Source: Escherichia coli
Lineage (GTDB): Bacteria; Pseudomonadota; Gammaproteobacteria; Enterobacterales; Enterobacteriaceae
DNA length: 1,647 nt
Strand: one strand, 5' to 3'
Assembly (NCBI RefSeq): GCF_003334765.1
Contig: NZ_QOWT01000077.1
Part shown: one piece after another, positions 78 to 641 of the stretch
Position numbering within the stretch: the stretch's first letter is position 1
Layout of the letters: every line of letters begins with the position of its first letter
Notes under the pieces: model-generated
The model's database searches: none
The model's input: the letters and a program-made list of their open reading frames with translations, nothing else
What the model was told of the DNA's origin: nothing
Translations under genes and position numbers: made by a program

Positions 78-264
78 CTGGTTAGGGGTATCGGCGCGCT
101 TGACCTCCTGAGAGCCTCTGTAAGCGTTTTTCGCGCCTTCCATGCCCTGGCGGGCATCTAAAACCCGTTTCGTGCGTCTGAGAGCTTTTGAGCGCGTTTG
201 AGGGGCTATCTGGCGACTCATCCCCAAAAGAACAACACCGGGATCACCGACAACATGCGAGAGG

Positions 265-328
265 TGATCCCGCTCGCCGCAAGTCGATGACCGAGCGTAG
301 CGAGCGAATCGACGAGGAAGCGGAAGAG
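265..328 (-). other. ColE1/pMB1-like block downstream of bom (candidate single-strand initiation / primosome-assembly-like site)
   Basis: The minus strand reads CTCTTCCGCTTCCTCG ... CTCGCTACGCTCGGTC ... GCGGCGAGCGGGATCA. From memory this resembles pBR322/pUC sequence between bom and ori (CTCTTCCGCTTCCTCGCTCACTGACTCGCTGCGCTCGGTCGTTCGGCTGCGGCGAGCGGTATCA), with a 16-bp identical run and roughly 80-85% identity over about 60 bp. It contains a CGCTCG/CGAGCG stem. The functional label is inference. Confidence 0.5.
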
Positions 329-364
329 AACCGGAAGCCACATTGAGCACTTACGCACTGATGC

Positions 365-389
365 GGGGTGTCGGGGTGAAGCCCTGACC
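365..389. repeat. Left arm of 25-bp inverted repeat (inverted partial copy of the bom arm)
   Basis: GGGGTGTCGGGGTGAAGCCCTGACC is the reverse complement of 613-637 at 24 of 25 positions (mismatch at 377/625). The two arms are separated by 223 bp. Confidence 0.9.
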
Positions 390-394
390 AAGTG

Positions 395-432
395 GTAATC
401 GTATCGGCGTGCATGCGCGGTTATACGATTAC
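395..432. repeat. Hairpin-forming inverted repeat (10-bp perfect stems GTAATCGTAT / ATACGATTAC, 18-nt loop containing GCATGC)
   Basis: 395-404 is the exact reverse complement of 423-432. It lies between the left IR arm and the tandem repeats. Confidence 0.8.
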
Positions 433-539
433 ACATCCTGTCCCGATTTCTGAGGCGTTTTAACGGTGAACGGACGGCAAAAACACGATGGAGCTGTTGA
501 ACGTGAAAACCACGAAATCTGGCAAAAATCACGGCTGGC

Positions 540-581
540 GAGGCTTGCATAGGAGTAAGCGAGGCTTGCATAGGAGTAAGC
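540..581. repeat. Perfect tandem direct repeat, 2 x 21 bp (GAGGCTTGCATAGGAGTAAGC)
   Basis: 540-560 and 561-581 are identical. On the minus strand the repeat begins exactly at the predicted nick (GCTTACTCCTATGCAAGCCTC twice). Confidence 0.95.
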
Positions 582-640
582 CAGTATACACTCCGCTATC
601 GCTACGTGACTGGGTCAGGGCTTCGCCCCGACACCCCCAA
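577..640 (-). other. ColE1/pMB1-type oriT (bom) with predicted nick between 580 and 581 on the minus strand
   Basis: The minus strand reads GGGGGTGTCGGGGCGAAGCCCTGACCCAGTCACGTAGCGATAGCGGAGTGTATACTGGCTTA. From memory this matches the pBR322 bom region (GGGTGTCGGGGCGCAGCCATGACCCAGTCACGTAGCGATAGCGGAGTGTATACTGGCTTA) with only about 3 substitutions. The nick is placed by analogy to the CTGG/CTTA context. The pBR322 sequence is recalled, not aligned. Confidence 0.75.
613..637. repeat. Right arm of 25-bp inverted repeat (part of the bom/oriT)
   Basis: GGTCAGGGCTTCGCCCCGACACCCC pairs with 365-389. Confidence 0.9.
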
Positions 641-641
641 A

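Follow-up and report, generated by a model that had tools for sequence, protein, structure and literature searches.

The window analysed here, a stretch of 1,647 nt of Escherichia coli DNA (contig NZ_QOWT01000077.1), carries an exact 77-nt redundancy, positions 1-77 being identical to 1571-1647, and thus represents a circular molecule of 1570 bp that was assembled with an overlap. The molecule is a variant of the known E. coli plasmid pKL1 (NC_002145, the type member, 1549 bp) and shows 98.5-98.8% identity along its whole length to a very common enterobacterial plasmid family of 1549-1570 bp, with more than 330 near-full-length database records. Plasmids of the pKL1 type are among the commonest tiny plasmids and are hosted by E. 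coli, Klebsiella and Shigella; their replicon type is Col(MG828), and the single annotated gene encodes the 158-aa helix-turn-helix protein of pKL1. The subject of this report is a block at 265-328 that is 100% identical to pKL1 and was flagged in an original prediction, made from the letters alone, as a ColE1/pMB1-like element associated with single-strand initiation (ssi). We propose that the plus strand of 270-325 is probably a primosome assembly site (PAS) of the phiX174 type, that is, dependent on n'/PriA, that it belongs to the lineage of ColE1 ssiA, and that its most likely role is vegetative. The features of the block are as follows.

270-325, plus strand: putative PAS core of 56 nt, CCGCTCGCCGCA - variable hairpin - CGAGGAAGCGGAA, common to ColE1, ColE2-like/Col156, IncX4 and Col(MG828)
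270-274, plus strand: 5' arm CCGCT of the outer stem, predicted to pair with AGCGG at 319-323; seen in the RNAalifold consensus and, for most variants, in the minimum free energy (MFE) fold
283-288, plus strand: 5' arm GTCGAT of stem P1, pairing with ATCGAC; 12 arm combinations among 29 distinct 56-nt cores
292-304, plus strand: apical hairpin C-GA-GC-GTA-GC-GA-G with a GCGNAGC mini-hairpin, from covariation and published motif rules (PMC13037366)
308-313, plus strand: 3' arm ATCGAC of stem P1, from covariation
318-323, plus strand: hexamer AAGCGG, inside GAGGAAGCGGAAG; invariant in all homologues and present as GAAGCGG on the phiX174 viral strand
326-366, plus strand: 3' extension of the ColE1-type similarity, with a conserved TACGC (352-356) and a small hairpin CGCA-CTGA-TGCG (354-365)

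Homology, active strand and fold

The minus strand of 265-328 reads CTCTTCCGCTTCCTCGTCGATTCGCTCGCTACGCTCGGTCATCGACTTGCGGCGAGCGGGATCA (CTCTTCCGCTTCCTCG...GCGGCGAGCGGGATCA), in agreement with the original prediction, which likened it to the pBR322/pUC segment between bom and the ColE1 origin. This likeness is borne out as homology. In ungapped comparison the block is identical at 50 of 64 positions to pBR322-type sequence recovered from vector-like contigs (L088) and at 47 of 64 to ColE1 1304-1367, against a top score of 34/64 for 100 shuffled queries run on both ColE1 strands. The 12-nt and 13-nt ends of the core are identical to those of the experimentally defined ColE1 ssiA (rriA), the L-strand n'-pas or factor Y effector site of pBR322. 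Local blastn against ColE1 (NC_001371) aligned 270-366 without gaps to ColE1 1309-1405 (69%, E 1e-11) and 577-641 to ColE1 1462-1526, the bom/oriT nick region (95%); both matches are plus/plus and collinear, so that the same strand and the same order as in ColE1, as had been claimed, were recovered. The third significant match, 366-393 against ColE1 1494-1521 in inverted orientation, was considered as an inverted copy of a bom arm (365-393) and rejected, as it belongs to an IncI/K-type origin of transfer (oriT). The conserved unit is 270-325, with ColE1-type similarity continuing to about 366, and a database query with 230-350 returned at least 5000 plasmid records.

The likeness to ColE1 does not extend further. 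The prediction had followed it on into the ColE1 origin and RNA II, but a word-7 blastn comparison with ColE1 yielded no alignment of E<0.1 beyond the two blocks, including 1-264 and 1344-1570, and no alignment to ColE1 640-1300 was found. The Rfam family RNAI was detected in ColE1 and not in the window, and neither RNA I/RNA II nor a ColE2-type origin was found in the window by Rfam and blastn. Judged by the RNA I/RNA II genes and the RNA-DNA switch, the plasmid is not a ColE1-type replicon; it is Col(MG828) with RepA. ColE1-like cis elements do lie on a Rep-encoding plasmid that is not of the RNA II type, namely pKL1, as the prediction had it.

The strand is best read from ColE1 itself. Rfam assigns RNA I to 645-749 of its minus strand, which means that RNA II and the leading strand go in the plus direction and that the parental strand displaced is the plus strand. 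On this strand the ColE1 counterpart of the block (1309-1364) is found some 100-150 nt beyond the origin. In ColE1-type loci (n=68) a median of about 68 nt separates the projected end of the RNA II alignment from the start of the core, and the sense is the same throughout. This position and strand are those of ssiA / n'-pas, for whose identity Zipursky and Marians in 1980 and Nomura, Low and Ray in 1982 are said to be the primary sources. In ColE1/pMB1, extension by DNA polymerase I (Pol I) exposes the primosome assembly signal ssiA, which engages PriA, then DnaB and DnaG, for lagging-strand synthesis (PMC3167613), and the standard element near oriV in the ColE1 family has been described as an ssi of about 82 nt that folds as a stem-loop (PMC5935869).

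The archetypal PriA site, the complementary-strand origin of phiX174, points the same way. Its viral strand (F-G intergenic region, ...CCGAAGCGGTAAAAATTTTAATTTTTGCCGCTGAGGGGTTGACCAAGCGAAGCGCGG...) agrees in sense with the plus strand of the window for the motifs GAAGCGG, CCGCT and GACCAAGCGAAGCG, and GAAGCGG forms a strong hairpin there with CCGCT (z -3.7). Further downstream, GACC-A-AGCG-A-AGCG has its counterpart in GACC-G-AGCG-T-AGCG of the window and contains a GCGAAGC mini-hairpin. In the phage these motifs sit on the strand that is single-stranded in vivo. Unlike the block, the phiX174 origin belongs to a phage genome, has no extended alignment to it, shows the AGCGG/CCGCT arms in reversed order and has an A/T-rich extension as its loop. 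Since the displaced strand of ColE1 is plus and the phiX174 viral strand bears the same motifs in the plus sense, the active sense of the block is the plus strand of the window. The prediction of a primosome or single-strand initiation site is thus sustained as to the type of site by the homology to the ssiA/n'-pas segment, but not as to the strand, which it had given as minus. The hexamer AAGCGG, which we take to be the conserved hexamer of n' sites from the literature of the 1980s, is accordingly found on the active strand.

Because single-sequence z-scores were weak and alike on both strands, the fold was approached by comparative analysis. Across 22 ungapped 56-nt variants (position 1 of the core being window 270), 91.7% of the cells were paired on the proposed structure, and 6 pairs, in 30 cells, were changed on both sides. 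The covariation score of 0.196 was reached by none of 500 shuffles, slid controls did not exceed 0.059, and a blind RNAalifold run returned the same architecture. Pairs 18/40 (A-T 18, G-C 4), 19/39 (C-G 11, T-A 11) and 26/32 (G-C 16, A-T 6) were always Watson-Crick, and pair 15/43 was so in 20 of the 22, with three pair types. At 16.42 and 17.41, 8 of the 22 have Watson-Crick pairs, and the remaining 14, the class of ColE1, pMB1 and IncX4, have a tandem G.A/A.G. In ColE1/pMB1, P1 accordingly reads C-G, G.A, A.G, A-T, C-G, whereas P1 of the window is fully Watson-Crick (GTCGAT/ATCGAC). The tandem G.A at 24.34 and 25.33 is invariant. The loop is G-N-A with N being T in 14, G in 4, C in 2 and A in 2, while G28 and A30 are nearly invariant. 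In the larger set of 29 distinct 56-nt cores, pair 26/32 is G-C in 20 and A-T in 9 without exception, and N is T in 17, G in 5, A in 5 and C in 2.

In the window itself the apical pairs are C292-G304, the tandem G.A steps 293.303 and 294.302, G295-C301 and C296-G300, closing the loop G297-T298-A299; C277-C278 further pair with G316-G317 and C280 with G314. The tip, 295-301, is GCGTAGC. The DNA mini-hairpin d(GCGNAGC) is extraordinarily stable, and this applies only to G-N-A loops closed by G-C, with any N (PMC13037366). In the variants N is indeed free and the outer pair covaries. The complementary GCTACGC cannot form the mini-hairpin, and the motif is therefore strand-specific evidence for the plus strand. 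A second strand test, the asymmetry of G.T against A.C mismatches, was dropped as the counts were too few and confounded by unpaired positions.

Distribution of the core among replicons

The core was delimited in an alignment of the window, the Col(MG828) lineages of 1552 and 1506 bp, ColE1, a Salmonella ColE1-like plasmid, a Col156/ColE2-like plasmid and an IncX4 plasmid. Its ends, CCGCTCGCCGCA (270-281) and CGAGGAAGCGGAA (313-325), are invariant, as is GACCGA between them. Similarity extends rightward to about 366 in the ColE1- and ColE2-like plasmids and leftward in IncX4 (110-325, 78%), and the overlap of the two defines 270-325. When 100,044 species-representative genomes were scanned with exact anchors, 110 loci with 35 distinct cores were found, and an interior-anchored scan of IMG/VR raised the number of distinct cores to 45. 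Many of the 110 matches lie in unrelated assemblies, on short contigs of pUC/pBR322 form with lacZ-alpha or pBR322 flanks assigned to Streptomyces, Microbacterium, Clostridium, Bacteroidetes metagenome-assembled genomes and others (among them L010, L017, L018, L031, L034, L043, L098 and L119); these almost certainly reflect contamination of public genomes with cloning vectors or small plasmids.

In IncX4 plasmids the element (the 110-325 unit) is intergenic and upstream of the initiator gene; about 95 nt further on come an A+T-rich region, five 22-bp iterons, two DnaA-box-like TGTGGATAA motifs and rep. Order and orientation are the same in the window, where the element is followed by the A+T-rich region at 680-730, the RepA inverted repeats at 734-781 and repA from 867; compared with IncX4, about 310 nt of transfer-origin sequence are inserted between the element and the A+T-rich region. 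The ColE2-like plasmid carries the element about 100-150 nt past its ColE2-type origin (AAGCCTATATCAGATAACAGCGCC), just after rep. The sites beside the ColE2-like (Col156) and IncX4 origins thus resemble that of the window in their 56-60-nt core and in the logic of their orientation, and the IncX4 site also in its left flank and in the succession of element, A+T-rich region, initiator sites and rep. They differ in their initiators, in their P1 and apical alleles and in having no adjacent transfer origin.

Altogether the element is origin-proximal in four replicon types, and in two of them (IncX4 and ColE2-like) it has no ColE1 bom in its neighbourhood. The diverged Col(MG828) lineages of 1552 and 1506 bp keep the PAS at the same position with a different allele, which is nearly identical to that of the Salmonella ColE1-like plasmid and differs from the pKL1 allele by compensatory changes. 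By these comparisons the core is a portable module common to replicon families and not a ColE1 speciality.

Transfer origins and other neighbouring elements

The features around the block are the following.

110-264, plus strand: left flank common to IncX4 plasmids and not to ColE1 (78% over 110-325), with frameshifting indels and direct repeats
362-452, plus strand: IncI/K-type oriT, by homology, consisting of a box GGGGTGTCGGGG..CCCTGACC (365-393), an inverted repeat (395-432) and the nick region CACATCCTG/TCCCG, the slash marking the putative nick at 440/441
538-579, no strand: 21-bp perfect tandem duplication (GCGAGGCTTGCATAGGAGTAA twice), the sole length difference between the 1570-bp molecule and the 1549-bp pKL1
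577-641, minus strand (nick strand): ColE1-type bom/oriT, 95% identical to ColE1 1462-1526
680-781, no strand: vegetative origin region, with an A+T-rich part (about 680-730) and RepA-binding inverted repeats (734-781), from the repeats in the window and the pKL1 literature (PMC3832669)
867-1343, plus strand: repA, encoding the 158-aa helix-turn-helix initiator (WP_000469298.1)

Replication of pKL1 relies on its own Rep protein. Upstream of rep lies the oriV, with Rep-binding sites, an IHF box and a perfect inverted repeat of 16 bp (PMC3832669); this inverted repeat corresponds to 757-781 of the window.

The region 362-452 is 82-93% identical to the sequence directly upstream of nikA-like and relaxase genes in IncK2/Z plasmids, of which one served as the reference, and in other MPF_I plasmids. 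The MOBP-type nick motif CACATCCTG/TCCCG follows eight bases after the inverted repeat, and we take the nick to lie at 440/441 of the plus strand on the MOBP consensus. The nick region is kept in the 1506-bp lineage, where the inverted repeat has diverged. Small plasmids that lack a relaxase and carry functional R64-like oriTs have been documented (PMC4743918).

The ColE1-type bom/oriT has the opposite polarity: in every one of the 58 loci that have both, its nick strand was the one opposed to the sense of the PAS. Its nick, CTGG/CTTA, is presumably at 581/580. On the minus strand the 21-bp repeat begins 1 nt past this predicted nick (CTGG/C-TTACTCC..., slash at the nick), and one possibility is that the duplication arose in an event associated with the relaxase or with replication slippage. 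By sequence comparison, then, a relaxase-less plasmid appears to carry two opposed oriTs, for two helper families, each of which would transfer a different strand. A general coupling between the orientations of the PAS and the IncI-type oriT was considered and rejected, as two small ColE1-type plasmids have two inverted copies of the IncI-type nick region each (L244, 75-88 plus and 225-238 minus; L245, 6230-6243 plus and 7383-7396 minus).

The original prediction had also described bom and an adjacent structured site as one ColE1-like module. Both parts are present, but they are not contiguous: the IncI/K-type oriT lies between them, and the left flank is IncX4-like. PAS and bom are about 251 nt apart here and 230 nt in pKL1, whereas 54 ColE1-type loci show a spacing of 97-98 nt. 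At about 78% identity, the left flank (110-264) matches the origin-proximal intergenic region of IncX4, where it is contiguous with the PAS, and its frameshifting indels argue against coding. It contains a 6-bp hairpin, ATGCCC-TGGC-GGGCAT, at 143-160. Two repeats in this flank, at 109-120 and 179-190, had been read as a faint echo of the motifs at the ColE1 RNA-DNA switch. The repeats are real (108-129 and 178-199, 77% over 22 nt), but they are conserved in IncX4 and show no alignment to the ColE1 origin, and the analogy to CAAAAGG-type repeats was given up because they lie within the IncX4-homologous segment.

By its sequence the plasmid is visibly a mosaic of ColE1-like, IncI-like and IncX4-like pieces. 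Directly past the repA stop, at 1357-1417, lies an imperfect palindrome that is 83.6% identical to an IncX4 palindromic element, located there between a small post-rep gene and a DUF2726 gene; on this similarity it is a second short module common to pKL1 and IncX4 replicons. A perfect 10-bp inverted repeat at 239-248 and 263-272 (CGGGATCACC ... GGTGATCCCG), whose right arm abuts and overlaps the 5' end of the PAS, is found only in the pKL1 lineage and not in the 1552/1506-bp lineages or IncX4. In an unannotated arc, the minus strand of 1473-1492 forms a good intrinsic-terminator-like hairpin with a T-run (GCTGCCGGAACCGTGGCGGC TCGGTTTTTT), which hints at a minus-strand transcript in 1-260 / 1493-1570. 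A record of a 1123-bp 'plasmid' was considered as a natural deletion and rejected, as it is incomplete and linear. Some RefSeq records place a minus-strand coding sequence (CDS), 'rep protein' or hypothetical, over the PAS and oriT (L005, 352-1011; open reading frame (ORF) 218-571 of the window). With no family support and with indels between lineages, this is probably a mis-annotation.

Proposed role and its alternatives

Some 355 nt separate the site from the A+T-rich and RepA-binding origin to its right, its 5' to 3' sense points at that origin, and IncX4 shows the same arrangement; this placement makes vegetative replication the most likely role. Opening of the origin, driven by RepA, would expose the plus strand, which when single-stranded would fold into an imperfect hairpin consisting of CCGCT/AGCGG, short C-G pairs, GTCGAT/ATCGAC, the tandem G.A steps and the GCGTAGC tip. 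Such a hairpin may resist coating by SSB and be recognised by PriA, and a primosome could then assemble at the site, with PriA, PriB and DnaT loading DnaB-DnaC and DnaG priming the complementary strand. The site may act on the lagging-strand template of a rightward fork or prime a leftward-copied strand; DnaB loaded on the plus strand would move rightward through the origin and repA, or a primer on the plus strand would be extended leftward. That the element is origin-proximal in four replicon types and retained in diverged lineages argues for selection on function and for a vegetative role. We infer both PriA binding in pKL1 and the exact replicative role from sequence comparison, and a literature search combining pKL1 and primosome matched only unrelated vectors.

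The counterpart in ColE1 agrees with the proposed site in its leading/displaced-strand sense, in a fold with covarying stems and in its order relative to bom. It differs in that the site of the window has no preceding RNA II or Pol I origin, in the wider spacing to bom with another oriT between, and in the IncX4-like left flank. The positional hallmark of ssiA in ColE1 and ColE2 plasmids is a location about 50-150 nt past a Pol I-type origin on the displaced strand, whereas here the distance to the RepA origin is about 355-410 nt and the site is on the far side of it. Proximity to a Pol I origin is a positional property of ColE1 ssiA and not a requirement for a PAS. The G-site of R1, according to Masai and Arai, is reportedly a primase-only signal about 400 bp from oriR in the same orientation to the origin. 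As a single-strand initiation signal placed some hundreds of nt away from an origin that depends on an initiator, it is a possible functional analogue. The R1 G-site and other G4-type ssi presumably differ from the block in sequence, and they are recognised directly by DnaG, without PriA. That the block itself is of the G4, primase-only type is unlikely given its clear homology to a PriA-type site.

Several observations weigh against a functional vegetative PAS. Covariation supports an intrastrand hairpin on the active strand, but its single-sequence energy is not exceptional: folding is unremarkable on both strands (z -1.4 to -1.75) and does not discriminate between them, and the MFE fold of the window favours pairing of CCGCTCG with CGAGCGA over the consensus. 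Nearest-neighbour models give no credit to mini-hairpins or to tandem G.A. The outer stem was fixed by the search pattern and is thus essentially outside the reach of the covariation analysis; in the interior-anchored scan it showed one compensatory A..T change (L187), and its terminal pair was broken in three copies. The geometric argument hinges on the direction of pKL1 replication and is only suggestive. Replicons of the theta type that are initiated by Rep can load DnaB at the origin, and a PAS need not be required. Finally, the element could be a passenger that arrived with the transfer-origin segment.

This last thought, in the form of a non-functional relic of ColE1-type recombination that came with the bom segment, draws on the visibly mosaic plasmid and on an initiator-type replicon with no obvious need for a PAS. 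We give it only a slight chance. A 1.5-kb plasmid has little room to spare, the PAS is retained in every diverged Col(MG828) lineage examined, with compensatory changes in the 1552/1506-bp allele, and the element borders on the left a unit shared with IncX4, in which it is origin-proximal and bom is absent. A functional PriA site that was selected for conjugation instead of vegetative replication deserves more consideration but is still unlikely. It could prime the complementary strand in the recipient after plus-strand transfer from the IncI/K-type oriT, the PAS lying about 115 nt 5' of the nick and entering last, or it could prime the replacement strand on the retained plus strand of the donor in ColE1-type transfer of the minus strand. 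The plus-strand IncI/K-type oriT at 362-452, the constant opposition between ColE1-type nick strand and PAS, and the functional R64-like oriTs of relaxase-less small plasmids (PMC4743918) all speak for such a role. Yet the coupling is not general, the IncI-type nick region occurring in both orientations in two ColE1-type plasmids; IncX4 and ColE2-like plasmids carry the element at the vegetative origin with no such oriT nearby; and the position and strand of the IncI/K-type nick are themselves inferred. The same logic is realised in ColE1 ssiB, which is on the transferred strand just 5' of nic. IncI plasmids, on the other hand, export their own primase.

As ALTERNATIVES to a single-stranded DNA (ssDNA) site, the minus-strand ORF 218-571, a structured RNA and duplex recognition were weighed. 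That one of these, the last as a protein-binding site, accounts for the conservation is barely credible, even though some records annotate a CDS ('rep protein') across the block and covariation alone cannot separate folding of DNA from that of RNA. The ORF has no NCBIfam match, and indels of 1 nt separate the lineages inside the block. Rfam gave no match at the block and two chance-level hits elsewhere in the window, no promoter-like or terminator-like signal overlaps it, and a G-N-A triloop closed by G-C with free N is a stability motif specific to DNA (PMC13037366). Compensatory changes favour intrastrand pairing over duplex recognition, and in ColE1/pBR322 the homologous element has been defined by experiment as an ssDNA site (PMC3167613, PMC5935869).

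A wider reading, which we consider doubtful, would see the pKL1-type plasmids as minimal 'transfer parasites' in which one plus-strand PAS serves replication from the RepA origin in the IncX4 layout, replacement synthesis in the donor after ColE1-type transfer and synthesis in the recipient after IncI/K-type transfer. The PAS would have been exchanged among at least four replicon families, and recognition by PriA would hinge on GCGNAGC and the tandem G.A. A review of DNA mini-hairpins does not list GCGNAGC for PriA sites (PMC13037366).

The block proposed here as a vegetative PAS is largely ordinary, a new or newly annotated member of a well-known type of site. What is modestly new is a structure backed by covariation, with a GCGNAGC tip and tandem G.A steps, the modular distribution over four replicon families, and two oppositely oriented oriTs beside the element. 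The practical consequences are modest as well: a conserved non-coding block in a very common tiny enterobacterial plasmid is explained, 'rep protein' ORF annotations over it in the databases are corrected, and such sites may be annotated automatically by structure, that is, an outer CCGCT/AGCGG, a variable stem of 5-6 bp, tandem G.A and a GCGNAGC tip. If a Rep-initiated plasmid does need the site, this would bear on how minimal replicons recruit the helicase and primase of their host.

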